Origin: Pseudomonadota bacterium
GTDB lineage: Bacteria > Pseudomonadota > Gammaproteobacteria > Steroidobacterales > MnTg04
Direction of reading: 5' to 3'
Length of the DNA stretch: 64,000 bases
Assembly (NCBI GenBank): GCA_022560735.1
Contig: JADFSO010000008.1
Location: forward strand, 10,691 to 74,690
Both the position numbers and the translations under genes were made by a program. Positions within the stretch are counted from its first letter, which is position 1. Each line of letters begins with the position of its first letter. The notes beneath the pieces were generated by a model, which was not told the origin of the DNA, did no database searches, and worked only from the letters and a program-made list of their open reading frames with translations. Positions 1-64,000 of this stretch are shown piece by piece.

Positions 1-1115
1 CAACGCGCTGCGGCATGCCGTTTGTCAATCATCGCTGGCTGGGCGGCATGCTGACCAATTTCAAGACCATCACCGCGTCGATCGGCCGGCTCGAAGAGCT
101 GGAGGCGATGGAAGAAAGCGGCGCGTTCGAAGCGCTGGTCAAGAAGGAGGTCATCGGCCTGCGGCGCGAGATGGACAAGCTGTTCCGCAGCCTGGGTGGC
201 ATCAAAAACATGAAGGGCCTGCCCGACGCATTGTTCATCGTCGATGTCGGCCACGAGAATATTGCAATCCGCGAAGCGGTCAAACTGGGTATACCGGTAA
301 TCGCCGTCGTGGATACCAACTGCTCGCCGGATGGCGTCGATTACATTATTCCCGGCAACGACGATGCGATGCGCGCGATCCAGCTGTACGCGCACGGCGT
401 ATCGGAAGCGGTTCTCGATGGCAAGGCCTCGCTGCCTGAAATCAACCTCGGCGATGACGAATTCGTCGAGCTCGATGACGAAGGCAAGCCCCGCAAGGAG
501 AGTACGGCCAAGAAACCGGCGCGCAAGAAAGCAGACAGGAAGGTCGTTGTGACGACGCTTCGAAAGGCCAGGGCAGACGAGCCGGCCGAGGCAAAGCCTG
601 TTGCGGATGACTCGGCAGTGGAGGCGCAGGCCAAGCCAGAACCGGCGCAGGCCGGCGCCGATGTCGAACAGGCAGCGGCAGGCGAAGAGCCCGCTGAAAA
701 ACTGGCCGTCGAAAAGCTGGAGCAAAAGCCGGCCGAGGCAAAGCCCGAAGAAACGGTGGCCGGTCAACAGCCAGTCGAGGCAAAGCCTGAAGAAACATTG
801 ACCGACAAAAAGCCGGCCGAGGCAAAGCCCGAAGAAAAGGCGACCGACCAACAGCCAGTCGAGGCAAAGCCCGAAGAAACGGTGACCGACAAAAAGCCGG
901 CCGAGGCAAAGCCTGAAGAAAAGCCGGTCGTCGCAAAGGCAGGGGACAAACAGCCCGCGGCGAAAAAAGCGGCGACCCGGAAAGTCGCAACGAAAAAGGT
1001 CGTGAGCAAGAAAGCCGCGGCCGGGAAAGCGCCAGCCAAAAAAGCGGCAGGGGAAAAAACCACAGCCAGGAAAGCCACGACGGAAAAAGCCGCTGCCGAC
1101 AAGAAGGACGCCTGA
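1..1115 (+). CDS. rpsB: 30S ribosomal protein S2, 5'-truncated by the window edge, with a long C-terminal extension
   Basis: S2 motifs [48 protein letters not shown]. The frame is open from position 3 and tsf follows. Confidence 0.97.
726..923 (+). repeat. In-frame 42-bp (14-aa) tandem repeat, about 4.7 copies, in the S2 extension
   Basis: GAGGCAAAGCC recurs at 735, 777, 819, 861 and 903. Units alternate KPAEAKPEE / [10 protein letters not shown] partial extra copy lies at about 588. Confidence 0.95.
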
Positions 1116-3528: not shown

Positions 3529-4317
3529 GTGAACCGTATCCGACTAGTCACGATGGCGGACCAGGCAGACAAGACCAGCCAGCAGCAGGACACCATGGCT
3601 GCCCGGCATATTGCGATCGTCATGGATGGCAATGGCCGCTGGGCGAAGCAACGCATGTTGCCCCGGCACGCGGGTCACCGGGCCGGTGTCAAGGCAGTGC
3701 GGCGCACCGTCGAGGCCTGCGTTGAACTGGGAATCCGTACCCTGACACTGTTCGCGTTTAGCAGCGAAAACTGGGGCAGACCCACGGAAGAAGTACAAAA
3801 ACTGATGACCTTGTTTGTCGAGGCCCTGAACAAACAGGTACCGGAGTTGAATGAGCAGGGGGTCAGGCTCACGATCATCGGCGACCGCGAGCAGTTGCCC
3901 GCCGACCTGGTCCGGCAGATAGAGGCATCGGAAGCGATGACCGCAGGCAACGAGCGCTTGCACCTGGTCATCGCGGTCGCCTACGGGGGTCGCTGGGATA
4001 TCGTCAACGCATGCAAAGGCCTGGCACGACAGGTTGCCGATGGCGAGCTGGCGGTCGAGGAGATAGACGAAAATCGCCTGGCGGCCCGGATACAGCTTGC
4101 CGGCCCTGGCGATCCGGATCTGTTTATTCGAACCGGCGGCGATTCCCGAATCAGCAATTTCCTGCTGTGGAACCTGGCTTATACGGAGCTGCATTTCAGC
4201 GACACGCTGTGGCCTGATTTTGAGCAGCAGGAACTGGCGGCCGTGGTTGGCGGTTTTCAAGGGCGGGAACGGCGGTTTGGCAAAACATCGGCGCAGGTGA
4301 CCGGCGATCATGCTTAG
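3529..4317 (+). CDS. uppS: Undecaprenyl diphosphate synthase
   Basis: HIAIVMDGNGRWA, FAFSSENWGRP, DLFIRTGGDSRISNFLLW. Start may instead be ATG 3553. Confidence 0.96.
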   Translation: MNRIRLVTMADQADKTSQQQDTMAARHIAIVMDGNGRWAKQRMLPRHAGHRAGVKAVRRTVEACVELGIRTLTLFAFSSENWGRPTEEVQKLMTLFVEALNKQVPELNEQGVRLTIIGDREQLPADLVRQIEASEAMTAGNERLHLVIAVAYGGRWDIVNACKGLARQVADGELAVEEIDENRLAARIQLAGPGDPDLFIRTGGDSRISNFLLWNLAYTELHFSDTLWPDFEQQELAAVVGGFQGRERRFGKTSAQVTGDHA

Positions 4318-18335: not shown

Positions 18336-19301
18336 ATGGATCTGAAATTTCTCGATTTTGAGCAACCCATCGCAGAACTCGAGGCGAAAATCGAAGAGCT
18401 CCGCCATGTCGGCAGCGACGCCGATATCAATATCAGCGAGGAAATAAACCGGCTCGAGGAGAAGAGCCGCTCGCTGACCAAGTCGATTTTTTCTGATTTG
18501 ACCGCCTGGCAGGTAACCCAGCTCGCGCGCCATCCGCAACGGCCGTACACCAACGACTACCTGGCAAAAATATTTACCGATTTCCAGGAATTATCCGGCG
18601 ACCGCATGTATGGGGACGACCCGGCGATCGTCGGCGGTCTGGCGCGGCTGGATGGCCGGTCGGTCATGGTTATTGGCCATCAAAAAGGCCGCGACACCAA
18701 ACAGCGGGTGTATCGCAACTATGGCATGCCCAAACCCGAGGGATATCGCAAGGCCTTGCGCCTGATGCGTATGGCCGAACGATTTTCGCTGCCGATCATT
18801 ACGCTGATCGATACGCCGGGCGCCTACCCGGGCGTCGGCGCGGAAGAGCGCGGGCAAAGCGAGGCGATCGCGCGCAACCTCTATGAAATGGCTGGCCTGC
18901 GCACGCCCATCCTGGCGGTCGTCATCGGCGAAGGGGGCTCCGGCGGCGCGTTGGCCATCGGCGTTTGCGATCGCCTGCTGATGCTCGAATTCAGCATTTA
19001 CTCGGTGATTTCTCCCGAAGGTTGTGCATCGATACTCTGGAAGAGCGCGGACAAGGCGGAAGTCGCCGCGGAAGCCATGGGCATCACCGCGGCCAGGTTG
19101 GCCAAGCTGGACCTGGTCGATGAAATTATCGGCGAACCGCTCGGTGGCGCGCACCGTGATCCCGATGCCATGGTCGAAGCCTTGAAAAATTCGCTGTTGC
19201 ACAACCTCGAAGCGCTCAGCAGTCACAACACGGATGAGTTGCTGGAACAGCGCTATCGGCGGCTGATGAACTTCGGCCTGTACAAAGAAACCGTGGATTA
19301 G
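18336..19301 (+). CDS. accA: Acetyl-CoA carboxylase carboxyltransferase alpha
   Basis: [38 protein letters not shown]. Confidence 0.97.
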
Positions 19302-19307
19302 CCAACC

Positions 19308-23306
<3,999 letters not shown>

Positions 23307-23334
23307 TCCAGCCAGGTAACGTGAGAGATCCTGA

Positions 23335-24624
<1,290 letters not shown>

Positions 24625-24641
24625 CCCGCAGGCTCAGACTT

Positions 24642-24971
24642 ATGCGCTATCTTTTGTTGCTCCTGCTTGGCTTGTTTTTGTTGCTGCAGTATCGCCTGTG
24701 GATCAGCGACGAGGGCATGCAGGAGATGTGGCGCTTGCGCGAACTGCTAGAGGAACAGTCCGCGCGCAACATCGAGCTGGAACAGCGCAATGCCGTGCTG
24801 GAAGCGGAAGTGCGCGATCTTCGGCAAGGCAAGGACGCGGTCGAGGAACGGGCGCGCAGCGATCTTGGCATGATTCGCGATCAGGAAACTTTTTTTCAGA
24901 TCGTCGGCGATGAATACCCGGGCGCAGAGCCTGCGCCGGACGATGCGGATGCGGCGGAGCAAACACCATGA
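24642..24971 (+). CDS. ftsB: Cell division protein FtsB
   Basis: TM segment then LQYRLW, coiled coil, EERARSDLGMI..ETFFQ; eno-ftsB-ispD synteny. Confidence 0.93.
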   Translation: MRYLLLLLLGLFLLLQYRLWISDEGMQEMWRLRELLEEQSARNIELEQRNAVLEAEVRDLRQGKDAVEERARSDLGMIRDQETFFQIVGDEYPGAEPAPDDADAAEQTP

Positions 24972-25681
24972 GCGAGCCACGTTTCTGGCTGGTGGTGGCG
25001 GCGGCCGGGACCAGCCGGCGATTCGGTGCAGAGCTGCCCAAGCAATACCAGGAGATCGGCGGCCGCTGCATGCTTGCGCATGCGCTGCAGGCCTTTGCCG
25101 ATTGGGGCAAAATTGCCGGCACCGTGCTGGCGATCGATGCTGGCGATCGCTGGTTTGCCGGCATCGGCGAACAACTGCCGTTGCCGGTCAGCACCGTGGC
25201 CGGCGGCGCCGACAGAATGCATTCCGTGATCAATGCCGTCCGGTCGTTGCAAGGTGAGGCTGGCGAGCATGACTGGGTGCTGGTCCACGATGCGGCGAGA
25301 CCGTGCCTTCGCGTGGACGATCTGCACAGGCTGATCGAATCGACCGGGGCCGATAGCGTGGGGGGGCTGTTGGCGACGCGGGTCACCGACGCGTTGAAAA
25401 AGGCGCATGACGACAACGGTCAGGCGCGGATAGTCTCGACGATGGACCGCGATGGTTTGTGGCAGGCGATGACCCCGCAGGTTTTCCCGTATGGCCTGCT
25501 CAGGCCGGCGCTGGAAAACGCGCAGAAAGTGGGTAAGGCGCTGGCTGACGAAGCCGCCGCGATGGAGTTGGCCGGTCATCGGCCATTGCTGGTCGAAGGG
25601 CGCCGCGACAATATCAAGGTGACCCGGCCCGCGGACCTGGCATTGGCAGAGGCCATACTGGCCGGACACAGGAGGGATTGA
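24968..25681 (+). CDS. ispD: 2-C-methyl-D-erythritol 4-phosphate cytidylyltransferase
   Basis: AAAGTSRRFG..PKQY, LVHDAARP, MTPQVF, NIKVTRPADL. Confidence 0.95.
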   Translation: MSEPRFWLVVAAAGTSRRFGAELPKQYQEIGGRCMLAHALQAFADWGKIAGTVLAIDAGDRWFAGIGEQLPLPVSTVAGGADRMHSVINAVRSLQGEAGEHDWVLVHDAARPCLRVDDLHRLIESTGADSVGGLLATRVTDALKKAHDDNGQARIVSTMDRDGLWQAMTPQVFPYGLLRPALENAQKVGKALADEAAAMELAGHRPLLVEGRRDNIKVTRPADLALAEAILAGHRRD

Positions 25682-26178: not shown

Positions 26179-26297
26179 TCATTCGGCGATAATTATTGCT
26201 GCGGCGGGGCGCGTTGGCGATCGCCTCGTTGCGCGAGTGCGCGGTTTTCCGCGATGCGCAGGTATCGCCCGGCGGCGAGTGATGACAGGAGCTAAAG

Positions 26298-27056
26298 ATG
26301 CTGGAACAGATTGAGCACGACGATATTCGGGAAATCCGCCTGGCGCGGCCGCCGGTCAATGCGATCGATGCGCCGATGATGCTGGCGATTCACGCCGCGC
26401 TGCAGAAAGCAGCCGATGACGAGGTGTCGGGAGTCGTACTGTCCGGGCGTCCGGGCTTGTTTTCGGCGGGGCTCGACATTCCATCCCTGTTGCAGCTGGA
26501 GCGGGACGAGATCGCGGAATTCTGGCGGAGTTTTTTTCGCGTTCTGCAAACGCTGGCGGCTTTTCCGGCACCGGTTTTTGCGGCGATCGGCGGCCACAAC
26601 CCGGCGGGTGGTACGGTATTAGCGATTTTCTGCGACCGGCGCATCGCCGCCAGGGGCGATTTTCGCATGGGGCTCAATGAGGTGGCGGTCGGGCTGGCCC
26701 TGCCGCGGTTGATTTTTTATGCCTATCGTTTGCTGCTCGGTCAGCGGGAGGCGGAAAGGCTGGCGGTGGTCGGCGAAATGATCAGCTCCGCCGATGCGCT
26801 CGCCTGCGGGCTGGTCGATGAGCTCGTCGAACCCGACGACGTGGTGACGACCGCGCTCGACAGGTTGCGCGGGGTGCTCGGTGTACCCAGGCGCGCGATG
26901 CTGGTCACTCGCCGGATCGCCCGGCAGCCGTTGATGGATATTTTCGATCAGCTGGACGAGGGCATGGTCGAGGCGATCACCGATGGCTGGTTCAGCGAGG
27001 AAACCCAGGCGGTCCTTGGTCAGCTGGTCGAGTCGCTGGCCAGTAAAAAAGCGTAG
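26298..27056 (+). CDS. Crotonase-family enoyl-CoA isomerase/hydratase (ECI1-like delta3-delta2 isomerase type)
   Basis: RPPVNAID, FSAGLD, GHNPAGGTVLAIFCDRRI, MGLNEVAVGL; AGGAG RBS. Subfamily assignment from recalled motif similarity. Confidence 0.85.
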   Translation: MLEQIEHDDIREIRLARPPVNAIDAPMMLAIHAALQKAADDEVSGVVLSGRPGLFSAGLDIPSLLQLERDEIAEFWRSFFRVLQTLAAFPAPVFAAIGGHNPAGGTVLAIFCDRRIAARGDFRMGLNEVAVGLALPRLIFYAYRLLLGQREAERLAVVGEMISSADALACGLVDELVEPDDVVTTALDRLRGVLGVPRRAMLVTRRIARQPLMDIFDQLDEGMVEAITDGWFSEETQAVLGQLVESLASKKA

Positions 27057-27069
27057 GCTGCGGTCGCGT

Positions 27070-27347
27070 TGAGATTGGGGCGTCGCGGGCCACTGTTTTA
27101 CTCACTGCTAGATGAACTTCGTTCCGAATCGAGCTGTGAGTAAAACAGCGTCCCGCGACAATGCTGGGAGATCGCGGCGCAGCCAATCGTGACGCTTCGA
27201 GTGGCGATGGTGGTATTGGGGACTGTGGTTGGCATGAAATTGGCGTTTTGCGGGCCACTGGTTTAGCCACTGCCAGATGAACTGCGTTCCGAATCGAGCT
27301 GTGACTAAACCAGCGTCCCGCAAAACAATGCTGGGAGATCGTGGTCC
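27070..27347. repeat. Tandem array 1 of a ~165-bp structured non-coding repeat (copy A 27070-27234, partial copy B 27235-27347)
   Basis: Period 165 bp (TGAGATTGG at 27070, TGAAATTGG at 27235). Each copy contains an inverted repeat around TGCYAGATGAACTKCGTTCCGAATCGAGCT. Homologous to 36603-36915. Confidence 0.95.
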
Positions 27348-27371
27348 AGCTGACCTTGACAGGTCGGTTGG

Positions 27372-28059: not shown

Positions 28060-28809
28060 TTGAATATTCTTCTGAGCAATGACGATGGTTACCTGGCGCC
28101 GGGATTGCGTTGCCTGGCGGAGGCTATCGCCGATCTGGCCGAGGTCACCATCGTCGCACCCGATCGCAATCGCAGCGGCGCCAGCAATTCGCTGACGCTC
28201 GATATGCCGCTGCGGGTCCACCGGGCGGGACCTCGTGTTTTCTTTGTCGAGGGGACGCCAACCGATTGTGTGCACCTGGCGATCACGGGTTTGCTCGATA
28301 CCGAGCCGGACATGGTCATTTCGGGGATCAACGATGGCGCCAACCTCGGTGACGATGTGCTGTATTCGGGCACCGTCGCCGCGGCCATGGAAGGGCGTTT
28401 CCTCGGCCTGCCGACCATGGCTTTGTCGCTGGTCGGCGGTAGCCGCCGCTTGTTCGAGACCGCTGCGCGGGTCGCCAGGGAGTTACTGATTCGCCTGACC
28501 GAGAATCCGTTGCCATCCGATACGATATTGAATGTCAACGTCCCCGACCTGGCCTACGAAGAAATATCCTCCTCGGTGGTGACCCGCCTGGGCTATCGGC
28601 ATCGCGCCGAACCGGTGATTCGCAGCAAGGATCCGAAAGGCAATGAGATCTTCTGGGTCGGGCCACCCGGCACCGGTCAGGACGCCGGTCCGGGTACGGA
28701 TTTTTTTGCGGTCGCCGAGGGCCGGGTTTCGATCACGCCGTTGCAGGTGGATCTGACCCGGCACGCGGATCTCGACAAGCTGAGTCAGTGGCTGGAACAA
28801 ACGCCGTGA
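28060..28809 (+). CDS. surE: 5'/3'-nucleotidase SurE
   Basis: [53 protein letters not shown]. Confidence 0.97.
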
Positions 28810-29474
28810 GCTGGCGTAATGTCAGCGGGATTGGCATGACCTCGGCGCGGACCAGGGACCGGTTGATCAAACGGTTGCAGAGCGGGGGTATTGTCAATCC
28901 CGAGGTCCTCGAAAGAATACGCAATGTACCGCGGCATTTGTTTGTCGACGAGGCGCTTGCCAGCCGCGCTTACGAAGACACTGCATTACCCATCGGCCAC
29001 GGCCAGACGATTTCGCAACCTTATGTGGTCGCGCGCATGACCGAGGCGCTGATCGGCGGGGGCCCGTTGCGGAAAATTCTTGAGGTGGGCACGGGCTGCG
29101 GCTACCAGACCACGGTCCTGGCGCCCCTGGTCGGGCAGATTTACAGCATCGAAAGGCTCGCGCCGTTGTTGCAAAGGGCGCGGCAAACCTTGTTTGAGCT
29201 GGGCATAAAGAACGTGCGCTTCAAGCACGGCGATGGTTTGCAAGGATGGCCGGAGGAGGCGCCGTTCGATGGAATCCTGGTTGCAGCGGCGCCCGCAACC
29301 ATTCCGCAGGACCTGGTAGACCAGCTGGCGGTCGATGGCCGCATGATTATCCCGGTCGGTGGCCGGGGCGGGCAGGAGTTGCTGCAGTTGACCCGGCGCA
29401 AGGACGGCACGATCCACAGAGAGTCCCTTTGCCTGGTGAGCTTCGTGCCCTTGCTGGAAGGTAAGATTCGGTGA
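28806..29474 (+). CDS. pcm: Protein-L-isoaspartate O-methyltransferase
   Basis: [43 protein letters not shown]. Start could be ATG 28836. Confidence 0.96.
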
Positions 29475-30046
29475 GCCTGTTCGGGCCGATTTATGATCGC
29501 CTGCTGCGCTGGTCGCGTCATGCTGCCGCGCCGTGGTACCTGGCCGGTCTGAGTTTCGCCGAGGCGTCCTTTTTTCCCATACCACCCGATGTGATGCTCG
29601 CGCCGATGAGCCTGGCCCGGCCGGATCGTGCGCTGCGTTTCGCCCTGATCACCTCGCTGGCGTCGGTGGCCGGCGGCCTGGCCGGTTATGCGATCGGTTA
29701 TTACGCGCTGGACCTGGCGGTACCGCTGCTCAGGGACCTGGGGTACTGGGATGGTTACCAGAGCGTGCGTGACTGGTTTGAACAATGGGGGTTCTGGGCG
29801 GTCTTCATCGCCGGGTTTTCACCGATTCCCTACAAGCTTTTTACCATTGCCGCCGGGGCCACGGGAATGCCGCTGGCCGGCTTTGTCCTGGCATCGGTAA
29901 CCGGCCGCAGCAGCCGGTTTTTTCTGCTCGCCGGTCTGATCCGCTGGGGCGGGCCGGCGATGGAACGTCGGCTGCGACGACACATCGATAGCATAGGATG
30001 GACATGCGTGGCATTGCTGGCGGCGGCGTTTTTTTATTTTCGATGA
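29471..30046 (+). CDS. yqaA: YqaA/DedA-family (VTT domain) membrane protein
   Basis: SFAEASFFPIPPDVML, AGFSPIPYKLFTI, GRSSRFFL. Confidence 0.88.
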   Translation: MSLFGPIYDRLLRWSRHAAAPWYLAGLSFAEASFFPIPPDVMLAPMSLARPDRALRFALITSLASVAGGLAGYAIGYYALDLAVPLLRDLGYWDGYQSVRDWFEQWGFWAVFIAGFSPIPYKLFTIAAGATGMPLAGFVLASVTGRSSRFFLLAGLIRWGGPAMERRLRRHIDSIGWTCVALLAAAFFYFR

Positions 30047-30744
30047 AACGACGACGGATCATTTTTTTGCTGATCGCCGGGCTGGTTTTTGCCGAGTTGT
30101 CAGGCTGTGCCGGCCAGCAACGGCGGGAGCGGGACAGCTACACGGTCCGGGCCGGCGACACGGTTTACGGGATCGCCTGGCGGTACGGACTGGATTACCG
30201 GGAGCTGGCGCACTGGAACCGCCTTGGCGGCGGCTACAGCATATTTCCGGGGCAGGTCCTGGTCCTCAGGCGGCCACCGGGCAGTGCGCTGGCCGGCACG
30301 GCAAAAAGGCCCTCGCCGGTGCGCGCAAAGGAACCAGCCCCGCCACCCAAAAAGCCACCGCCGGCAGCTTCCAGGCTTGACTGGCTGTGGCCCGTCAAAG
30401 GCAGGGTCCTGTCCAGTTTTGGCGCTGCCGGTGCAATCGGCAAGGGGCTCGATATCGCCGGCACGGATCGGGCGCTGGTCAGAGCGGCCGCCGAAGGTCG
30501 CGTGGTCTACTCGGGCAGTGGACTTATAGGATACGGCCAGCTTATCATCATCAAGCATAACAACACCTTTCTCAGCGCATACGGATATAACTCGGAGTTG
30601 CTCGTTGCACAGGGTGACAAAGTCAGCAAGGGACAGCAGATTGCCCGCATGGGGAAAGGCCCAGGCAAGCGCCCGATGCTGCATTTCGAGATTCGGATCG
30701 ATGGAAAACCGGTCGATCCGATAAGATACTTGCCAACTCGTTAG
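30043..30744 (+). CDS. nlpD: LysM/M23 lipoprotein, NlpD/YgeR-like
   Basis: Lipobox LSGC, Lys[15 protein letters not shown], Pro/Lys linker, degenerate M23 domain (KGLDIAG, LHFEIR); pcm-nlpD-rpoS synteny. Confidence 0.88.
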
Positions 30745-30800
30745 TGGCCGGCCGCAAGGCGCCATGGCGCGCCGCCTGGGGTAAAACCTGGGTGGGGATA

Positions 30801-31793
30801 GTGGCGAGAAAAAGCATCGGGGCGGCGGCGAACTCGCGTCGCGGCGAAACTGCACTGACCACGCCGGCCGGAGGCGTGCCGCTGCGCACGGCCGGTGCGA
30901 TTGGCCGGGAAAGAGCGCGGGCGGCCGGGCGGCTGCCCGCAACAGTCATGACCCGGTCCCAGCAGGACGCGACTCGCTTGTATCTCAGCGAGATCGGCTA
31001 TTCCCCGCTGCTGACTGCCAGGGAAGAAGTCTTTTTTGGCCGCCGCGTCCTGCGCGGTGACGAAGGCGCCCGCAAGCGCATGATCGAAAGCAATCTGCGC
31101 CTGGTGGTCAGGATTTCCCGACGATATCTCAATCGGGGTTTGCCGCTGCTGGACCTGATCGAAGAAGGCAATCTCGGGCTCATGCACGCGGTCGGCAAGT
31201 TCGATCCGGAGAAAGGCTTTCGTTTTTCCACTTATGCGACCTGGTGGATCCGGCAAACCATCGAACGAGCGCTGATGAACCAGACCCGGACCATTCGTCT
31301 GCCCATACATATCGTCAAGCAGATCAACAGTTGTCTGCGGGCTTCTTACCGGCTTGCCCAGGATCTCGACCGGTCGCCGACCATTGCGGAGATCGCCGAC
31401 TCGGTGGACAAAGAGCAGGCGGATGTCGAACGGGTGCTGGAGCTCAATGAAAATATCTGTGCATCCAGCCTGCCATCGACAAACGGCGGCGAGAGATGTT
31501 TGCTCGAGCGTATACCCGACAACACGGAGAAAATCGACCCGTCCGCCAGCGTGCAGCAACAGAATGTTCACGATGTGCTGGAACACTGGCTGGAATGCCT
31601 GAGCGACAAGCAACTGGCAGTCGTGGAAAGACGCTTTGGCCTGCATGGTTACGAGCGCACGACGCTGGAGAAAGTCGGTGCGGAGATCGGCGTGACCCGG
31701 GAGCGGGCGCGGCAGATCCAGGTGGATGCGCTGGCGACGCTGCGCAAAGCCATGGAGTCAGATGGTATCGGCAGCGAAGCCGTGTTCGACTAG
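30801..31793 (+). CDS. rpoS: RNA polymerase sigma factor RpoS-like
   Basis: [66 protein letters not shown]. Start uncertain (GTG 30801 or ATG 30948). Confidence 0.9.
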
Positions 31794-32155
31794 GCCAGCA
31801 ACGCGGCGACTACGCTGCGATTTTCACAGGCCAGGATATTGTACGTGCGGCAGGCCGCGCCGCTGTCCATGATTTCAAGCCCGATGCCGCGGGCGCCAAG
31901 ATCGGCAATCAGCCGTTGCGGGGGTTGAATGCGCACCGGGCCGCACCCGAGCAGGAGAACCTCGGGCCGATCCGCCAGCGCCGGTTCGAGTTGCGCCAGG
32001 TCCAGGGTTTCAATGTTATCGGCGAGCCACGCCTGCACGCGGTGCCGGCTGATCAACAGCGGGCAGTCATGGTATTTGTCGCGAACCCGGATACGGCCGG
32101 GCTCGTATGAGCGAATCAGCAATCCTTCGCCGGCATTGTCGGGCACGATCTTCAA
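31790..32155 (-). CDS. Mth938-like (DUF498/NDUFAF3 family) protein
   Basis: [44 protein letters not shown]. Confidence 0.9.
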
Positions 32156-32252
32156 TCGATGCTACCTCTGCTATGCTCCGTTCGCCGTTTGCAGCAGGGT
32201 TATTTTATCCAATGCAGGTTTTTTCTGCCGGATTTTATTAAGGGCTCGTGTC

Positions 32253-33944
32253 ATGGAGATTCGTAACAGGCCGCTTGCCGTCGAGGATTTTCTGCCGGCG
32301 GACATGCATCCGGTCCTGAAACGTATTTACCTGGGGCGTGGTATCGGCGAGCCACGACAACTGGACCTGTCGCTGGGCGGCTTGTTGCCGGTCGGAGATC
32401 TCGGTAGTACCGGGCAAGCGGTCGACTTGCTGCTTGCGCACCGGCAAAAAAACTCGCTGATCCTGATCGTCGGCGATTTCGACGCCGATGGCGCGACCTC
32501 GACCGCCCTGTTGATGAGAGGGCTGAAGCAACTGGGTTTCGCCAGGCTGGGCTACCTGTTGCCCGACCGGTTTTTGCTGGGTTATGGTTTGACCCCGGCA
32601 ATAGTCGAGTTGGCCGGGCAGCAGGATCCGGGTCTGATCATCACCGTGGACAACGGTATCTCGAGCATCGATGGCGTTGCGCTGGCAAGAAAAATGGCTA
32701 TCGAGGTGCTGGTCACGGATCATCACCTGCCGGGGCCGGAGTTGCCGGATGCCAATGTCATTCTCAATCCCAACCTGCGTGGAGAAAAATTCAGCGGCAA
32801 GTCACTGGCGGGGGTCGGCGTCGCGTTCTATTTGCTGGCCGCCTGCGAACGGCGGCTGGACTCGGGCAGCGCCGTCGCGGCCGGTCTGCTCGACCTGGTG
32901 GCGCTGGGTACGGTCGCCGATGTGGTCGCGCTGGAGCGGAACAACCGCATCCTGATCGAGCAGGGCTTGCGGCGGATCAGGGCCGGTCGCTGTTGCGCGG
33001 GGATTACCGCGCTGCTGGAAGTGGCAGGCAAGCACCCGGCCCGCGCCCGGGCCAGCGATCTCGGTTTTGCGGTGGGACCGCGGCTCAATGCCGCCGGCCG
33101 GCTGGATGACATGACGATCGGTGTGGAATGTTTGCTGGCGGAGCAGTTGCCGGCCGCCCGCATACTTGCGGCCCGCCTGGATGGATTGAATCGGGAGCGG
33201 CGCGAGCTGGAAAAAAAGATGGCGGCCGAGGCGCTGGCCATCGTCGATGCGCTGGTCCTGGAGCAAAGCAGTGAGCTCCCCTGGGGAATATGCCTGTACG
33301 ATCCCGGCTGGCACCAGGGCGTGGTCGGCCTGGTCGCGTCGCGCGTCCGCGAGAAATTCAGCCGGCCGGTGGTCGCCTTCGCCCCGGGCCAGGGCGATGA
33401 ACTGAAAGGCTCGGCGCGCTCGGTGCCGGGCCTGCACATACGCGACGCACTCGATGAAATAGCGACCCGCCATCCGGGATTGCTCGGCAAGTTCGGTGGC
33501 CATGCGATGGCCGCCGGTCTCAGCCTGGAGAGTGACCGCTTTGCGTTGTTCGCGGAGGCATTCGACTCGGTGGTCAGGCAAAAACTCAGGATCGAGGACC
33601 TGCAGGCTTTCCACTTCAGCGATGGGCAACTGGCTGCGGGGGATCTCGATCTGAGCCTGGCGGAACTGATGGCGGATGCCGGACCGTGGGGCCAGGGTTT
33701 CCCGGAGCCACAGTTTGACGGTGAATTCGAGCTCATCGAGCAGCGCGTCGTTGGCGGCTCGCACCTGAAACTCAGGCTGCGCGCAGCCGATGGCGGGCAA
33801 ACGCTGGGCGGCATCGCGTTCCGCCAGTCCTGGCCCGACAATGCCGGCGATCGCGTGCGCCTGGTTTACCGGCTCGAGGTCAATGAGTTTCGCGGTCGCC
33901 GCGAAGCCCAGCTCAACGTGATCCAGATCGAAGCTCTCGAGTGA
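32253..33944 (+). CDS. recJ: ssDNA exonuclease RecJ
   Basis: IVGDFDADGATS, ITVDNG, VTDHHL, GSARS, GGHAMAAG. Confidence 0.97.
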   Translation: MEIRNRPLAVEDFLPADMHPVLKRIYLGRGIGEPRQLDLSLGGLLPVGDLGSTGQAVDLLLAHRQKNSLILIVGDFDADGATSTALLMRGLKQLGFARLGYLLPDRFLLGYGLTPAIVELAGQQDPGLIITVDNGISSIDGVALARKMAIEVLVTDHHLPGPELPDANVILNPNLRGEKFSGKSLAGVGVAFYLLAACERRLDSGSAVAAGLLDLVALGTVADVVALERNNRILIEQGLRRIRAGRCCAGITALLEVAGKHPARARASDLGFAVGPRLNAAGRLDDMTIGVECLLAEQLPAARILAARLDGLNRERRELEKKMAAEALAIVDALVLEQSSELPWGICLYDPGWHQGVVGLVASRVREKFSRPVVAFAPGQGDELKGSARSVPGLHIRDALDEIATRHPGLLGKFGGHAMAAGLSLESDRFALFAEAFDSVVRQKLRIEDLQAFHFSDGQLAAGDLDLSLAELMADAGPWGQGFPEPQFDGEFELIEQRVVGGSHLKLRLRAADGGQTLGGIAFRQSWPDNAGDRVRLVYRLEVNEFRGRREAQLNVIQIEALE

Positions 33945-35106: not shown

Positions 35107-36600
35107 GTGAAACAGATGACGGAAGAAAACGAACACGAGCTGATCGCCGAGAGACGGCGAAAGTTACAACGACTGCGGGAGCACGGCCCCGCCTATCCGA
35201 ATGATTTTCGCCGCGATGCACTGGCCGGCGAGTTGCACGCAAAGTATGGCGAACACGACGATAAGAAACTGAAGCAGGCAAATATTGAAGTCGCCGTTGC
35301 CGGTCGCATGATGGCAAAACGCGTCATGGGCAAGGTCTCTTTTGCCAAGCTGCAGGACCGCAGCGGCCAGATCCAGATATTTCTCACCGGCGATGAATTG
35401 CCGGATGGCGTCTACCAGGATTTCAAGAGCTGGGATCTCGGCGATATAGTCGCGGCCCGCGGATCTTTGTTCAGGACCAGGACCGGCGAACTCAGCGTGC
35501 GGGCGGTCGAGTGCCGCATACTCGGAAAATGTTTGCGCCCCTTGCCGGAGAAATTTCATGGCCTGCAGGATCAGGAGACGCGCTATCGTCAGCGTTATCT
35601 CGACCTGGTCATGAACCCCGGCTCCCGGCAGGTCTTCCAGGCGCGCACCCGGGTGGTCTCCCATATTCGCAATTTTCTCGATAGCCGGGATTTCATGGAG
35701 GTCGAGACGCCGATGATGCAATCGATCCCCGGTGGGGCGGTCGCGCGTCCGTTTATCACCCACCACAACGCACTCGATATGGAGCTGTATCTGCGGATCG
35801 CACCCGAGCTTTATCTGAAAAGGCTGGTCGTCGGCGGCTTCGAGCGGGTATACGAGGTCAATCGCAATTTCCGCAACGAGGGGCTTTCGACGCAGCACAA
35901 CCCGGAATTTACGATGCTCGAGCTGTACCAGGCCTATGCCGATTGGGAAGACATCATGGCGCTGACCGAGTCGCTGATACACAGTCTCGTCGATGCCCTG
36001 CATGGCCAGGAGGAGATCAGTTACCAGGGCGAGTCCATCGGGATGGGCAAGCCGTTCCGGCGCATCAGCGTGGAGCAGGCGGTGATCGGCGAGAATCCGT
36101 TGCTCGAATCGAAGACCCGCGACCGCGATGCCCTGGCGGCGCGTTGCGTGGAGCTTGGTCTGGTCGTCGACGATGCGGCGGGCGCCGGCAAGCTGCTGTT
36201 TGATATTTTCGACAAAACCGTTGAAGACAAACTGCGACAACCTACATTTGTGACTTCATATCCGGCGGAAGTCTCTCCTTTGTCACGCTGCGACGATAAC
36301 GATCCGTTTCTCACGGATCGTTTCGAGTTGTTTATTGCCGGGCGCGAGATCGCCAACGGTTTTTCCGAACTCAACGATCCGGAGGAGCAGGCGGCGAGAT
36401 TCAAGGCGCAGGTTGCACTCAAGGACGCCGGTGACCACGAGGCGATGTTCTATGACCATGACTATATCCGTGCGCTTGAGGTTGGCATGCCGCCGACCGG
36501 GGGTCTTGGCATCGGCATCGACCGGCTGGTCATGCTGTTGACCGATTCCGCATCGATTCGCGATGTCGTGTTGTTTCCGCACATGCGGCCGGAGTTTTAG
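35107..36600 (+). CDS. lysS: Lysyl-tRNA synthetase (class II)
   Basis: [52 protein letters not shown]. Alternative start ATG 35116. Confidence 0.98.
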
Positions 36601-36602
36601 CC

Positions 36603-36915
36603 GGCCGCCGGTTTAGCCACTGCTAGATGAACTTCGTTCCGAATCGAGCTGTGACTAAACCGGCGTCCCACAAAACAATGCTGTGAGATCGCGGCCCCGG
36701 CAAATGTGACGCTTCGATGGGTGATGGTGGTATTTGGACTGTGGTTGGCATGAGATTGGGGTTTTGCGGGCCGCCGGTTTAGCCACTGCTAGATGAACTT
36801 CGTTCCGAATCGAGCTGTGACTAAACCGGCGTCCCACAAAACAATGCTGTGAGATCGCGGCCCTGGCAAATGTGACGCTTCGATGGGTGATGGTGGTATT
36901 TGGACTGTGGTTGGC
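36603..36915. repeat. Tandem array 2 of the ~166-bp structured non-coding repeat
   Basis: 36603-36749 and 36769-36915 are identical over 147 bp except one C/T; period 166 bp; same hairpin and apex as 27070-27347. Confidence 0.97.
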
Positions 36916-36935
36916 CAGCCGCTGTTTTACTGACT

Positions 36936-37841
36936 CTAGCCTGGGACTGGATAAGGCAGATCGAGGGGGCTTAGCGGTGTGCCGTCGATGTTTAGATCCG
37001 CCTGTCGTTGATCGTGTCGGATGACTGCGAGGTATTCCCAGGCGGGCTGGTCGCCGCCGGGGCATTTCTGGCGGTTCAGTATTTCGCCGACTTTCTTGCC
37101 GTTCGCAACATTGACTTCGTCGCCGGTGATTTCGGTTTCGCTGCCGAGGCGGCACAGGCGGCGTTTTATTTTTCCGAGGTTCTGGGTGCGGGCGATAATT
37201 TCCTGGCCGGCATAACAGCCCTTGCTGAAACTGATTGCGCCGATCAGGTCGAGGTTCAGCATTTGCGCGGTATAACGTGCCTGGTTGGCGGTGGTCACTC
37301 GCGGTATGCCGGCGCGGATATCCGCCAGGCGCCACTGGGTTTCCGGCTGCTCGGTCAGGGCGTCGTTCAGCAGTTGCCAGTCGGCGCTGTCCGGTGGCCC
37401 GCAGGCAAGAATCCGTTGCCCGTTGTAAGCGGCGAGCAGCAGTCCGCCGGCGGTGCGGGTCACGCAACCGGGTTGCGGTATCGGCAGGGCCGGCAGCGCG
37501 GCGGCGAGATTCGCTCCGCCCAGACCGCACAAGCCGTTAGCGATGCTGAACTCCACCTTGGCGCGCAACACGTATCGCGACAAGCGGTCGCGGATATCCT
37601 GGACTATCTCGCTCGGCAGGATCAGGCTGGCCTCGTTTCCTTGCAGCAGGACCAGGGCCAGCGCGAGTACCCGGCCGTCTGGCTGGTGATAAGCGGACCA
37701 CTGGCAGCGGGTGTCATCCAGCGCATGCATATCGTTGCTGAGCTGGCCTTGCAGAAAGCTGACGGTATCGGCGCCGGCGATCGTCAGGACGCTGGTTCCG
37801 GGCAGATTGGCGCGCCAGTTTTTATTGATTTTCCCATTCAT
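36936..37841 (-). CDS. ygfZ: Folate-binding Fe-S maturation protein YgfZ
   Basis: GADTVSFLQGQLSND, AQMLNLD, ISFSKGCYAGQEIIARTQNLGKIKRRL. Confidence 0.94.
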   Translation of the reverse strand: MNGKINKNWRANLPGTSVLTIAGADTVSFLQGQLSNDMHALDDTRCQWSAYHQPDGRVLALALVLLQGNEASLILPSEIVQDIRDRLSRYVLRAKVEFSIANGLCGLGGANLAAALPALPIPQPGCVTRTAGGLLLAAYNGQRILACGPPDSADWQLLNDALTEQPETQWRLADIRAGIPRVTTANQARYTAQMLNLDLIGAISFSKGCYAGQEIIARTQNLGKIKRRLCRLGSETEITGDEVNVANGKKVGEILNRQKCPGGDQPAWEYLAVIRHDQRQADLNIDGTPLSPLDLPYPVPG

Positions 37842-37940
37842 CGATTGTCGATCCCTGATCCTGAACGAGCCAACCATATCATGCTACTGACGAGCCATTT
37901 GCAGGGTGCAAACAATTTGGCTTTCTGGCAAAATCCGGGT

Positions 37941-52564: not shown

Positions 52565-53874
52565 GCCGTGGCCTGGCGTCTCGCCCCGTGCAAACTGCCA
52601 ATATCATGCGCCTCGATCACAAGGGACGGGGCGAAGCCGATGTCCCCGGCCGCGCGGCCAGGGTGCACCATACGCTGCCGGGCGAACAGGTCACGTTCAA
52701 GCGCCGGCGGCGACGGCGAGGATTCGACGAAGCGGAAATTGTCGAGCTGCTCAGGCCTTCGGCGCACCGGGTCGAACCGCGCTGCCCGCATTTCGGCAAC
52801 TGCGGCGGTTGCTCGATGCAGCATATCGATCCCGGGCAGCAGATCGCGCTCAAACAGGGCTGGTATCGCGAAATGCTGGCCGGATACGAGCTGGAGCCGG
52901 AACGCTGGCTCGAGCCCTTGTCCGGTCCGCAGTGGGCTTACCGCCGCCGCGCCAGGCTGGGGGTCAAGAAGGTCGCCGGCAAGGGCAGGGTGCTGGTCGG
53001 TTTTCGCGAGGTTTTCAAATCCTTTGTCGCCGATATGGATGGCTGTGAAATCCTCTCGGGCAATGTCGGCCAGCTCATAGCCCCGCTGTGCCAGCTGATC
53101 GACGGGCTCAGTATCTGCGAGCGGATTCCGCAAATTGAAGTCGCCGTTGCGGACAATGCGACGGCGCTGGTACTGCGTGTTCTCGATACCCCGACGGCGG
53201 ACGATCTCGAAGCGCTCAGACAATTTGCCGGGTGCCACCAGGTGCGGTTCTATCTGCAGGAGGGCGGTCTGGACAGCGTGCAGCCGCTGATCGAGGGGCA
53301 AGACGCGCTGTGTTACAGACTGCCGGCTTTCGACCTGGAACTGGAATTTTCGCCGGTCGATTTTATCCAGGTGAACGGGGCGCTCAACGAGAAAATGATC
53401 GAGCTGGCAATCGAGTTGTTGGCGCCACGGGATGATGAGCAGGTACTCGATCTTTTTTGCGGTCTGGGCAATTTCAGCCTGGCGCTGGCCCGGCGCTGCG
53501 CCGGCGTGACCGGTATCGAAGGAGACATGGGCCTGGTCGAACGCGCCCATGGCAACGCGATCCGGAACAACATCGACAATGCAGAATTTCTGCCGGCCGA
53601 TTTGTTCTTTCCGTCCGCCGAAGAGCCATGGATGACCGGCCGGTACCCCTGTGTCGTGCTGGATCCGCCGCGCAGCGGCGCCAGCCAGGTTATTCCGTTC
53701 CTGCCGTCCGTGGGCGCCCAGCGTATCGTCTATGTCTCGTGCAACCCCGCCAGCCTTGCGCGCGACGCGGCCAGCCTGGTGGAATTGGGCTATGATTTCA
53801 AGGCGACCGGGGTCATGGACATGTTTCCGCACACCAGTCATGCGGAGGCGATCGCGTTGTTTGCCAGGCCATAG
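52561..53874 (+). CDS. rlmD: 23S rRNA (uracil-5)-methyltransferase RlmD
   Basis: TRAM-like N-terminus, CPHFGNCGGCSMQH Fe-S motif, LDLFCGLGNF, LDPPRSG, YVSCNP, DMFPHT. Confidence 0.92.
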   Translation: MSRGLASRPVQTANIMRLDHKGRGEADVPGRAARVHHTLPGEQVTFKRRRRRRGFDEAEIVELLRPSAHRVEPRCPHFGNCGGCSMQHIDPGQQIALKQGWYREMLAGYELEPERWLEPLSGPQWAYRRRARLGVKKVAGKGRVLVGFREVFKSFVADMDGCEILSGNVGQLIAPLCQLIDGLSICERIPQIEVAVADNATALVLRVLDTPTADDLEALRQFAGCHQVRFYLQEGGLDSVQPLIEGQDALCYRLPAFDLELEFSPVDFIQVNGALNEKMIELAIELLAPRDDEQVLDLFCGLGNFSLALARRCAGVTGIEGDMGLVERAHGNAIRNNIDNAEFLPADLFFPSAEEPWMTGRYPCVVLDPPRSGASQVIPFLPSVGAQRIVYVSCNPASLARDAASLVELGYDFKATGVMDMFPHTSHAEAIALFARP

Positions 53875-53899
53875 AAACCGTTCCCAGGGAGGAATAGCC

Positions 53900-54943
53900 G
53901 TGACGCTGGGCCCGCTGATGCTGGATATCGAAGGTCCCGAATTGACCGCCGAGGATCGCGAGCTGCTGGTCCATCCGCTGATCGGCGGCGTAATTTTGTT
54001 CGGCCGGAATTACCTGGACCCCGGGCAGCTGCAAAAGCTGAGCGATGATATACACGGTTTGCGAACCCCGGCCTTGCTGGTCGCGGTCGACCAGGAAGGC
54101 GGCCGGGTACAAAGATTCCGCAAGGATTTTACCGGCTTGCCGGCCGCGCACCTGGTTGGCAGGCAATCCGACCTGGACCGGAAACAGGGGCTGTTGCTGG
54201 CGGAAAGCTGTGGCTGGGTGATGGCGGCCGAGCTCAGGGCCTGTGGCGTCGATCTGTCGTTTGCGCCGGTCCTCGATCTCGACTCCGGCCTGTCGGAAGT
54301 GATCGGCGACCGTTCGTTTCACTCCGACCCGAACCGCGTGGCCGAATTGGCCGGCGCCTATATGCGGGCAATGAAATCGGCGGGTATGGCGGCCGTGGGC
54401 AAGCACTGGCCGGGTCACGGGGCGGTCAGCGGCGATTCGCACCTGGCGCTGCCGAGGGACCGGCGCGAATATGCCGATATACTCGAGGATATCATTCCCT
54501 TTCAAAAGCTGGCAGATCGCGGCCTGGCCGGGGTGATGACGGCGCATGTCGTTTATCCGCAGCTGGACCTGGTACCCGCGTCGTTTTCGAGCTATTGGAT
54601 CAACGACGAGCTCAGGGGGAAACTGCGATTCAACGGCGTCGTGTTTGCCGACGATCTGAGCATGCAAGGCGCGGCCGGGGCCGGCGATCTGGCGGATCGC
54701 GCGCGCGCCGCATTGGCTGCCGGCGCGGACATGATCATGGTTTGTAACGATCGCAGCGGTGCGATTCGAGTTGTGGAAGAACTGTCGGTATATGACAATC
54801 CCGTCAGCGCGTTGCGCCTGACCCGGCTGCATGGGCAAAACTGCGCGCCCCGCGATGAGCTTTTTGCCAGCGAACGCTGGCAGGAAGCGATAGCGATAAT
54901 AAACAGTGCCGAGCATCAACCCGGGCTGAGTCTGGACGCCTGA
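53900..54943 (+). CDS. nagZ: Beta-N-acetylglucosaminidase (GH3)
   Basis: VDQEGGRVQR, FAPVLD, GKHWPGHG, DSH, MTAHV, DDLSM; GGAGG upstream of the GTG. Confidence 0.95.
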   Translation: MTLGPLMLDIEGPELTAEDRELLVHPLIGGVILFGRNYLDPGQLQKLSDDIHGLRTPALLVAVDQEGGRVQRFRKDFTGLPAAHLVGRQSDLDRKQGLLLAESCGWVMAAELRACGVDLSFAPVLDLDSGLSEVIGDRSFHSDPNRVAELAGAYMRAMKSAGMAAVGKHWPGHGAVSGDSHLALPRDRREYADILEDIIPFQKLADRGLAGVMTAHVVYPQLDLVPASFSSYWINDELRGKLRFNGVVFADDLSMQGAAGAGDLADRARAALAAGADMIMVCNDRSGAIRVVEELSVYDNPVSALRLTRLHGQNCAPRDELFASERWQEAIAIINSAEHQPGLSLDA

Positions 54944-54991
54944 GAAAAATACGACGAGCAGCAAAAAACATCGGCACATCCGGAGGATTTC

Positions 54992-63233: not shown

Positions 63234-63515
63234 TCAGCCGGATTTCTTCTTCGAGACCGTATGGATGACGTAGCGGTACTCAAAATAAACCACAAAGTCC
63301 GGGTACTCCCAGCGGGTGATTGGCGGGTCGCCGACCGAGGCGTAGCGCTGGCTCGGTTCGCCATAGCGGTTTTCCACCTGGTCCATGCTCATGCCGCGGC
63401 CGGGACCGGTTGCAGACTGGGCGATAGTTTGTGCGGAAACCGCGCTGGTCATAATGAACGGACCGGCCATGCCAAGTCCAAGTATAGCGGTGAGCACAAT
63501 CGTCCATTTGTTCAT
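63234..63515 (-). CDS. Small secreted protein with SmpA/OmlA (BamE)-like motif
   Basis: Signal peptide, then PGRGMSMDQVENRYGEP...PPITRWEYPDFVVYFE; GGAG RBS upstream of ATG 63515. Confidence 0.7.
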   Translation of the reverse strand: MNKWTIVLTAILGLGMAGPFIMTSAVSAQTIAQSATGPGRGMSMDQVENRYGEPSQRYASVGDPPITRWEYPDFVVYFEYRYVIHTVSKKKSG

Positions 63516-63743
63516 GGCGTCTCTCCTTGAGTCCCTGTTGGCGAATATAACACTGTGGCCAGAGAAAAAAAATGCGTTGAATATCATCACTTTCCACCAG
63601 TTTTGCGGGGTTTGCCCGGTACCGGGCGGCAATCGCCGGGTGGCGGTTCGGAAATTTTGCCGATGTGGAGATGGAGGGTCCGCGCCGGGATATCGATGGG
63701 CCGCGTTATTCAGAACTGCGCCATTGTGATTTAATCGCGGCCC

Positions 63744-64000
63744 ATGTTCCAGGCTTTGGAAATTTTCATCGGTCTGCGTTATTTGCGACCCAGGCAACAA
63801 AACCGCTTCGTTTCGTTTATCACGCTGGCATCGATGATCGGCGTAGCGCTCGGTGTCGCCGCGCTGATCGTCGTGCTGTCGGTCATGAACGGATTCGAAA
63901 ACGAGCTGCGCGGCCGCCTGTTATCGATGACTTCTCATGCGACGGTGGCGGCTGCGCGCGGCGGGATCAGCGAGTGGCGGGAACTGATCGCCAGCGCGCA
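63744..64000 (+). CDS. lolC: Lipoprotein-releasing ABC transporter permease LolC/E, 3'-truncated
   Basis: MFQALEIFIGLRYLR...RFVSFITLASMIGVALGVAALIVVLSVMNGFE, read by hand; not in the ORF track. Confidence 0.92.
   Translation, partial: MFQALEIFIGLRYLRPRQQNRFVSFITLASMIGVALGVAALIVVLSVMNGFENELRGRLLSMTSHATVAAARGGISEWRELIASA

Follow-up and report, generated by a model that had tools for sequence, protein, structure and literature searches.

A narrowly distributed family of tandem palindromic repeats, mostly at convergent gene junctions, in a Woeseiaceae-related group

Two short arrays of a non-coding palindromic repeat lie in a 64,000-nucleotide (nt) stretch of Pseudomonadota DNA (hereafter the window), both at junctions where two genes converge. 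Array 1 (27057-27371) occupies the whole 315-nt gap between an enoyl-CoA hydratase/isomerase gene (ECH; 26298-27056, plus strand, stop codon 27054-27056) and smr (from 27372, minus strand, stop codon 27372-27374). Array 2 (36597-36935) lies between lysS (35107-36600, plus strand) and ygfZ (36936-37877, minus strand, 313 amino acids). ECH, Smr and LysS are identified by Pfam matches, and the 313-residue minus-strand product as folate-binding protein YgfZ through the names carried by its homologues. The arrays hold four hairpin units, all on the plus strand, each made of a 78-nt imperfect palindrome (H) and a G-rich linker (L). Their layout is (L)-H-L-H-L, cut off at differing points in each array:

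27057-27081, plus strand: array 1, partial linker (the 3' part of L, its last 25 nt), directly after the ECH stop; aligns with the 3' part of the internal linkers
27082-27159, plus strand: array 1, hairpin H1, 78 nt, subtype 'A1'; inverted repeat, DNA fold -28.6/-30.7 kcal/mol, z about -9
27160-27246, plus strand: array 1, linker of the long type with core motif GCTTCGAGTGGCGATGGTGGTATTGGGGACTGTGG; 35 G and 15 C in 87 nt
27247-27324, plus strand: array 1, hairpin H2, of a subtype near the array 2 hairpins (6 differences in 78 nt)
27325-27371, plus strand: array 1, shortened linker tail ending ...GTCGGTTGG at the smr stop; aligns with the long-type linker
36597-36674, plus strand: array 2, hairpin 1; the lysS stop TAG (36598-36600) lies inside the foot of its left arm
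36675-36762, plus strand: array 2, linker 1, long type
36763-36840, plus strand: array 2, hairpin 2; inverted repeat, 112.6 bits with model R1, DNA fold z -7.1/-8.5
36841-36909, plus strand: array 2, linker 2
36910-36935, plus strand: array 2, third hairpin, cut down to its left arm, directly next to the ygfZ stop (36936-36938)

A repeat finder spaces the four copies 165, 9350 and 166 nt apart, and in array 2 Tandem Repeats Finder counts 1.9 copies, 98% identical, of a unit of 166 nt. Units are 98% alike within array 2 and 83% alike within array 1. A 29-nt probe from the hairpin apex, allowed up to 3 mismatches, hits exactly these four sites in the window against 0 expected by chance, and a covariance model of H finds no further copies there. 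An earlier note, made from the letters of the window, had located both arrays and their four copies correctly; it was also right that the second array shares the orientation of the first, lies between convergent genes and holds near-identical copies. The array ends recur in related sequences, denoted here by their labels (L003, L021 and so on). An edge homologous to the start of array 1 (CCCGCGGTCGA...) is found in L021 and L007, the array 1 tail is homologous to the tails that adjoin smr in the same two relatives, and an identical cut-off third arm closes the arrays orthologous to array 2 in L003, L006, L021, L022 and L026.

The palindrome is a structure under selection. H folds as a single long hairpin of 33 pairs with conserved irregularities: C.T, T.T and A.G mismatches, a 3-nt CGA bulge and a 3-nt loop. 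The window hairpins fold far beyond shuffled sequence (z -6 to -10), as RNA or DNA and on both strands. Pairing holds in 95% of stem cells when 20 copies (19 of them distinct) of the window and of related contigs are compared, and 10 of the 33 stem pairs have changed on both sides in a compensatory manner, a level of covariation that 0 of 500 shuffles attain; sliding the partner column as a control drops pairing to 25-42%. Fully compensated pair changes also separate the orthologous first hairpins of the lysS array in L006 and L021. Among 23 compared copies there is almost no variation in the central ~36 nt of the apex, CACTGC[T/C]AGATGAACT[T/G]CGTTCCGAATCGAGCTGT[G/A], or in the foot, while on the same contigs identity to the window falls to 69-83% at 4-fold degenerate sites of flanking genes. 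Conservation lies at the two ends of the stem, in the apex and in the foot (GCGGGCC/GCGTCCCRC), with a variable mid-stem between them.

The two strands of H are not equivalent. Where only one side of the stem has changed, the result is a G.U pair at 5-6 positions if the minus strand is read and at 1 if the plus strand is. The minus strand is the more stable RNA in 13 of 17 distinct hairpins (mean 3.6 kcal/mol), and as DNA it is more stable by 2-4.5 kcal/mol. Its loop is GAA or GCA, closed by C-G, with only the middle base varying; GNA triloops are unusually stable. As small counts from interrelated copies (6:1, one-sided p ~0.06), these figures suggest a lean towards the minus strand and are no proof of one.

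The linker is conserved in a different way. L measures 87-88 nt in the window and 66 nt in a 'short' variant elsewhere, is G-rich on the plus strand (34-35 G against 14-15 C in the window) and carries the core GCTTCGATGGGYGATGGTGGTATTTGGA. This motif stands solely beside hairpins at all loci and was found nowhere away from H in the sequences compared. Neither strand of L has a conserved secondary structure. Many linkers, not all, have GTAG about 14 nt 5' of the hairpin foot; REP (repetitive extragenic palindromic) sequences have a conserved 5' tetranucleotide such as GTAG. Unit length (144 versus 165-169 nt) mostly tracks the genome rather than the locus; one array, that of L008, mixes short-type and long-type linkers.

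The family is narrowly distributed and low-copy, with a few loci per Mb. Its apex pattern occurs in 1 of 185,579 species-representative genomes, that of 'Bacterium MnTg04', where 8 apex copies form four tandem pairs of 144-nt period at 4 loci on 4 contigs in 1.73 Mb, a count that is a lower bound in so fragmented a metagenome-assembled genome (MAG). That MAG belongs to the JTB255/Woeseiaceae clade and comes from an abyssal ferromanganese crust (PMC6839870). A metagenome scan finds the pattern on 8 further contigs, and no match was found among IMG/VR viral contigs, PLSDB plasmids or GenBank phages. Flanking genes distinguish at least 6 loci: ECH/smr, lysS/ygfZ, secF/suhB, folE2/Ser-Thr kinase, gspF-like/dnaE and ABC-F/histone-deacetylase-like. 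Five of the 6 lie between convergent genes, and the ABC-F/histone-deacetylase-like locus is divergent. Syntenic contigs share 85-89% identity with the window, which indicates a genus-level group; its members are deep-sea Gammaproteobacteria.

The density of arrays in the window is not typical. By a heuristic gene map, its first ~53 kb have just two clearly separated convergent junctions, and each holds one of the arrays. The extrapolation in the earlier note to many arrays per genome, made on condition of a typical density, is not supported, with 4 loci in the 1.73 Mb of the sole species-representative genome that has the apex. Its picture of a dispersed, tandemly arrayed non-coding family holds, with at least 6 loci and a hairpin as the core of the unit, and copies beyond the four in the window exist in MnTg04 and on the 8 metagenome contigs. 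The covariance model adds no diverged copies in the compared loci besides one decayed copy in L017, described below; an 11.6-bit match inside recJ of L015 is spurious.

Assemblies break at these repeats. The contigs of L014, L023, L024 and L025 end at arrays, and the scaffolds L019 and L020 have N-runs at both junctions. Contig ends and gaps placed so exactly show that assemblers treat the element as a multi-copy repeat, and apparent differences in scaffold size at the gaps are therefore artefacts. What gene tables presented as a presence/absence polymorphism of one unit between L019 and L020 is accounted for by the same N-gaps.

Close relatives differ in what they carry at the ECH/smr junction. 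L013 matches the window at 98% in ECH and smr (98-99% at 4-fold sites), with only 22 unrelated nt between the two genes; where L013 departs from the window, it does so with no concentration around the junction and hence no clear sign of an imported segment. L007 and L014 (~88% identical) have one short-type L-H-L in the opposite orientation, adjoining what is left of the long-type tail, still in contact with smr. The left edge and the tail seen in the window are kept in L021 and, its N-gap apart, in L019, with the hairpin wholly gone and a 63-nt spacer left (L021 16233-16295). L017 retains one decayed hairpin that scores 28 bits with the covariance model, against more than 100 in intact copies, and the junction is empty in L016, L018 and the distant L015. 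These states imply that the site was colonised before the lineages split. Since then it has seen loss of the hairpin, deletion that left almost nothing, decay, and another insertion, this one inverted. The comparison of filled with empty sites reveals gain, loss and inversion polymorphism between close relatives (L013, L007, L021).

Further remnants and length variants were seen. L008 (3100-3170, minus strand) has a hairpin-less remnant with its linkers kept and its palindrome down to the last 9 nt. At the folE2/kinase locus, a terminal linker is present in one relative only (L002 ~4090-4110 versus L010 9140-9200); the missing linker is bounded by 9-nt direct repeats, TCGAAGGGC / TCGAAAGGC, which suggests deletion by recombination between short repeats. 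Upstream of the ECH/smr junction, truD lies between ispF and ECH in L015 (11456-11881) and L016 (3635-4696) and is absent from that position in the window (26179-26297) and in L007.

Comparison of the lysS/ygfZ junction reveals that hairpins move between arrays as modules. The array there, including its cut-off third arm, is common to the window, MnTg04 (L003), L006, L021/L022 and L026. The unit number is two for the window, L003 and L006; L021, L022 and L026 have a single one. The more distant L015 and L027 lack the array, and their genes there abut or overlap. L026 is probably conspecific with the window, as its YgfZ is 98% identical. Its single hairpin at the lysS locus is nonetheless unlike the array 2 type of the window: it equals H1 of array 1 at 78 of 78 positions. 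The 75-nt flanks on either side of these two hairpins are only 61-69% identical, and the identity ends exactly at the hairpin foot (GTCGCGGG...CCCGCGAC).

The same contrast holds throughout the family. H is 97-100% identical between loci or genomes whose adjoining 75-nt flanks are 56-93% identical, and it thus behaves as a self-contained module, passed between scaffolds by copying or conversion. The 78/78 match at the lysS locus of L026 shows in turn that modules are exchanged instead of diverging in place. The two unlike hairpins of array 1 are different subtypes brought together. The earlier reading, that the copies of array 1 diverged from each other, is not supported as divergence in situ, since H1 and H2 belong to different subtypes and H1 is the hairpin of L026.

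The window has the appearance of one long run of housekeeping genes on the leading strand. GC skew is positive throughout and genes run with it; on the heuristic gene map nearly all genes in 1-56684 are on the plus strand, the exceptions being smr, ygfZ and an open reading frame (ORF) at 53813-54979. The order is rpsB, tsf, pyrH, frr ... dnaE ... ispF, ECH, smr, surE ... prfB, lysS, sdhCDAB, followed by rpoE-rseAB, lepA, lepB, era, recO, pdxJ ... mfd, with functions in 18336-25681 and 28788-33944 assigned by synteny with L015. Pfam scans covered 53 of the 57 heuristic gene calls and gave housekeeping functions alone; two of the scanned ORFs had no match (53813-54979 and 63234-63800). No transposase, RAYT, integrase or reverse transcriptase is among these 53 calls, in agreement with the earlier statement that the window lacks a transposase.

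The element tends to follow the skew. Its plus strand lies on the G-rich, leading-type strand of the flanks in 6 of 7 independent insertions, the exception being the inverted copy of L007. Short loci, and a skew coupled to the direction of genes, make this orientation suggestive only. Apart from the arrays, the window encodes a ribosomal protein S2 (3-1115, plus strand) with a C-terminal extension of ~230 amino acids rich in Lys, Ala, Glu and Pro. The extension includes 14-residue repeats (KPAEAKPEE.. type) encoded by a 42/84-nt tandem repeat at 723-938.

In behaviour, the family is like repeats of the REPIN/BIME type, and its nearest described counterpart is the tandem REPIN clusters and REP arrays of Pseudomonas fluorescens SBW25 (Bertels & Rainey 2011). 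There, REPINs are extragenic hairpins with frequent compensatory stem changes; their ordered clusters usually comprise two tandem units, each flank-REPIN-flank; excision of whole REPINs is evident in sequencing reads; and tandem REP arrays have replichore-dependent orientation, with a RAYT transposase encoded elsewhere as the proposed mobiliser (PMC3116915). Our family shares with these clusters non-coding hairpins of ~70-110 nt, compensatory changes, tandem pairs with flanks, whole-hairpin loss, apparently a skew-linked array orientation and presumably a mobilising gene encoded elsewhere. It differs in having a few loci per Mb rather than hundreds of copies, and in being built on one long hairpin with invariant apex and foot rather than on two terminal REPs of 20-25 nt. 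The likeness is one of architecture and behaviour, and no RAYT is seen in the scanned window genes or beside the arrays examined; we do not file the family as a member of REP-RAYT.

Other intergenic repeats resemble it in part. Like the BIMEs (bacterial interspersed mosaic elements) of Escherichia coli, the arrays are extragenic mosaics of tandem palindromes and conserved linkers, in the order L-H-L-H-L at all loci. BIME units alternate between Y and Z types with palindromes of 35-40 nt, whereas here all hairpins within an array run head to tail and each is a single 78-nt palindrome. BIMEs, too, occur after stop codons and between convergent genes, and they are transcribed within neighbouring mRNAs; their linkers bind IHF, gyrase or Pol I. 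ERIC, Correia/NIME and pneumococcal BOX elements are likewise non-coding, intergenic and strain-variable, with long imperfect palindromes or modular units, and such elements are transcribed intergenic DNA devoid of coding capacity. Compared by description, they differ in that their terminal inverted repeats are defined and Correia elements also duplicate a TA target; here neither fixed ends nor a duplication was found, and the family is confined to one Woeseiaceae-related group. A clean insertion of the MITE type is also missing at the ECH/smr junction, where the empty L013 site shares no spacer sequence with the filled site of the window. The hairpin module itself is sharply bounded, yet has no flanking duplication.

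This is, then, a new, narrowly distributed family of a known bacterial repeat kind. The earlier note had chosen the right class in calling it REP/BIME/REPIN-like, its architecture matching the tandem REPIN clusters of SBW25, and overstated matters in proposing an undescribed system. It had also found no named family to match, and indeed Rfam 15 gives no window match at the gathering threshold; at E<=10 there is only generic miRNA-hairpin noise, at no more than 23 bits against thresholds of 54-93. In the library searched, we found no paper linking Woeseiaceae to REP-type repeats.

We think it probable, with some reserve, that H is spread and homogenised at the DNA level within a non-coding palindromic repeat family, that recombination between linkers remodels the arrays, and that they are tolerated mainly at convergent gene ends. 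Unit anatomy, stem covariation, narrow distribution, polymorphism in presence and orientation, and module exchange are the observations that this account joins; an enzyme, a single-stranded intermediate and any effect at the RNA level are what it would add to them. As a unit of its own, H would pass from one intergenic site to another by copying or conversion, probably by way of a single-stranded DNA hairpin and an enzyme encoded elsewhere, for which a RAYT/IS200-type HUH transposase is the obvious candidate; short-patch gene conversion may be an alternative route. Arrays would grow, shrink and lose hairpins through recombination or slippage between L and H repeats, and insertions would survive mainly where they are harmless, at convergent gene ends. 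Read-through from a neighbouring gene would transcribe H, and its RNA, with a folding energy of -40 to -50 kcal/mol, would form a highly stable stem-loop that could block 3' exonucleases or insulate two converging transcripts.

Several results weigh against such DNA-level spread. A RAYT gene, of the Y1/HUH class, is typically single-copy and flanked by its repeats. No RAYT/HUH or other transposase was found in the scanned window genes or beside the arrays in L001-L012, and no junction set contains a target-site duplication or a clean insertion junction, the array ends being ragged. Eight hairpins at 4 loci in a 1.73-Mb MAG compare with tens to hundreds for classical REP/REPIN families, and the pattern of conservation, with apex and foot invariant and the mid-stem covarying, is unlike that of REPINs. 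Arrays also persist at the same two loci across lineages with ~70-80% flanking 4-fold identity. This persistence, the compensated changes between orthologous copies and the better folding of minus-strand RNA would also fit selection for a host function.

One form of host function would be a domesticated cis-acting RNA element at convergent ends, whether it stabilises mRNA 3' ends, attenuates in the manner of Rho or insulates against converging transcription, with mobility as its mere origin; we regard this, with an RNA-level effect as the chief cause of array persistence, as possible, if unlikely. REP/BIME elements do stabilise upstream mRNA and attenuate transcription, and here 5 of 6 loci are convergent, with arrays that abut or overlap stop codons. 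The lysS/ygfZ and ECH/smr arrays are kept in several lineages with compensated changes between orthologous copies, and both the wobble pairs and the mean RNA stability favour the minus strand. On that strand the long-type window linker is ~40% C and 16-17% G (the short type more skewed by eye), and a C-rich, G-poor RNA stretch resembles a Rho loading site. Close relatives (L013, L016, L018) nevertheless do without the element, and distant ones have abutting or overlapping genes; its orientation is flipped at one locus, another locus lies between divergent gene starts, and the strand bias is not statistically firm. An intrinsic terminator is ruled out: the stem has no U-tract after it on either strand, being followed by AAAAC/AACGG on plus and AAAACCCC on minus, and the polarity of its foot is opposite to that of such a terminator. 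Terminator-like sites lie outside H only, as a plus-strand stem in the array 1 tail (27346-27371) and at 36907-36922.

A more novel reading has H not as a RAYT-type REPIN but as a host-maintained element with a strand-specific role: it might be a new structured RNA or DNA signal at converging transcription, or a module moved by a new hairpin-specific recombinase. The features behind it are the invariant apex, the conserved unpaired bases, the GNA triloop, the minus-strand G.U pairs, the replication orientation and a Chi-like, G-rich motif in the linker. We consider it doubtful.

It is less probable still that each unit is an independently transcribed small RNA (sRNA) gene with the apex or the linker as functional seed. 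Tandem copies of sRNA genes are known in other bacteria, and the invariant 36-nt apex, the covarying stem and the conserved, unstructured linker motif speak for such a gene. The window arrays, however, have no sigma-70-type promoter in any unit and no intrinsic terminator within units, array ends are cut off variably, hairpins are lost while linkers stay, Rfam offers no match, and presence varies within one species. A sigma-54-like TGGCAT-N5-TGG, noticed by eye in long-type linkers, is missing from short-type units and was rejected. The repeated structured non-coding RNA that the earlier note offered as an alternative is made less likely by the lack of promoter and terminator; a weak minus-strand bias in G.U pairs is seen.

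We give little credence to a replication-oriented DNA signal in which the linker core, G(A/T/G)TGGTGG, is Chi-like and polar, adjacent to the hairpin and oriented with the leading strand. The cores GATGGTGG / GTTGGTGG / GGTGGTGG do fit GNTGGTGG, the Chi consensus reported for Haemophilus, which may not be that of this clade, and orientation follows the GC skew of the flanks in the 6 of 7 insertions given above. GCTGGTGG is skewed 5:1 to the plus strand in the window, yet codon usage explains the skew of other 8-mers; it dominates where nearly all genes lie on one strand, so octamer skew is uninformative for GATGGTGG. Real Chi is frequent in genes, whereas GATGGTGG occurs nowhere else in 56 kb of the window, and several linkers are altered inside the octamer.

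Integron attC sites (a CALIN cluster), a CRISPR array and a coding mini-gene repeat can be set aside as highly improbable: the palindromes are attC-sized, imperfect, in tandem and regularly spaced, and units of 165 and 144 nt are multiples of three, but the foot, 5'-GTTTTGC...GCAAAAC-3' or GTTGC...ACAAC on both strands, has the polarity opposite to R''/R' (RYYYAAC...GTTRRRY), a conserved linker stands between hairpins in place of cassettes or spacers, and the reading frames are broken. With attC/CALIN sites, which are active as single-stranded hairpins, the family does share imperfect palindromes, conserved unpaired bases, species-level homogeneity and arrangement in arrays; foot polarity and the lack of cassettes between sites tell the two apart. 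The stretches that separate hairpins repeat each other (98% alike in array 2), and the earlier remark that the arrays have no variable spacers is accurate, as one repeated linker fills these positions. Coding capacity is contradicted by 4-6 stops in each plus frame and by spacings of 165, 166, 167 and 143-145 nt that break any frame, which agrees with the earlier finding of no conserved reading frame. A small linker ORF (MGDGGIW...) was rejected, its ATG and frame not being conserved, and stop-free minus frames over the arrays stem from a scarcity of T and lie across real genes in a different frame.

The family has consequences for how these bacteria are read. JTB255/Woeseiaceae are among the most abundant marine-sediment bacteria and mostly uncultured, and the family breaks assemblies at housekeeping loci. 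Because its presence differs between genomes 98% identical around the site, the element marks strain-level variation. It also offers a compact case of concerted evolution of a hairpin module, with identity that stops exactly at the foot. If a cognate HUH enzyme is found, low copy number and an invariant apex would make this a tractable REPIN-like recognition system; if no such enzyme exists, the mechanism of module exchange would become the interesting question.

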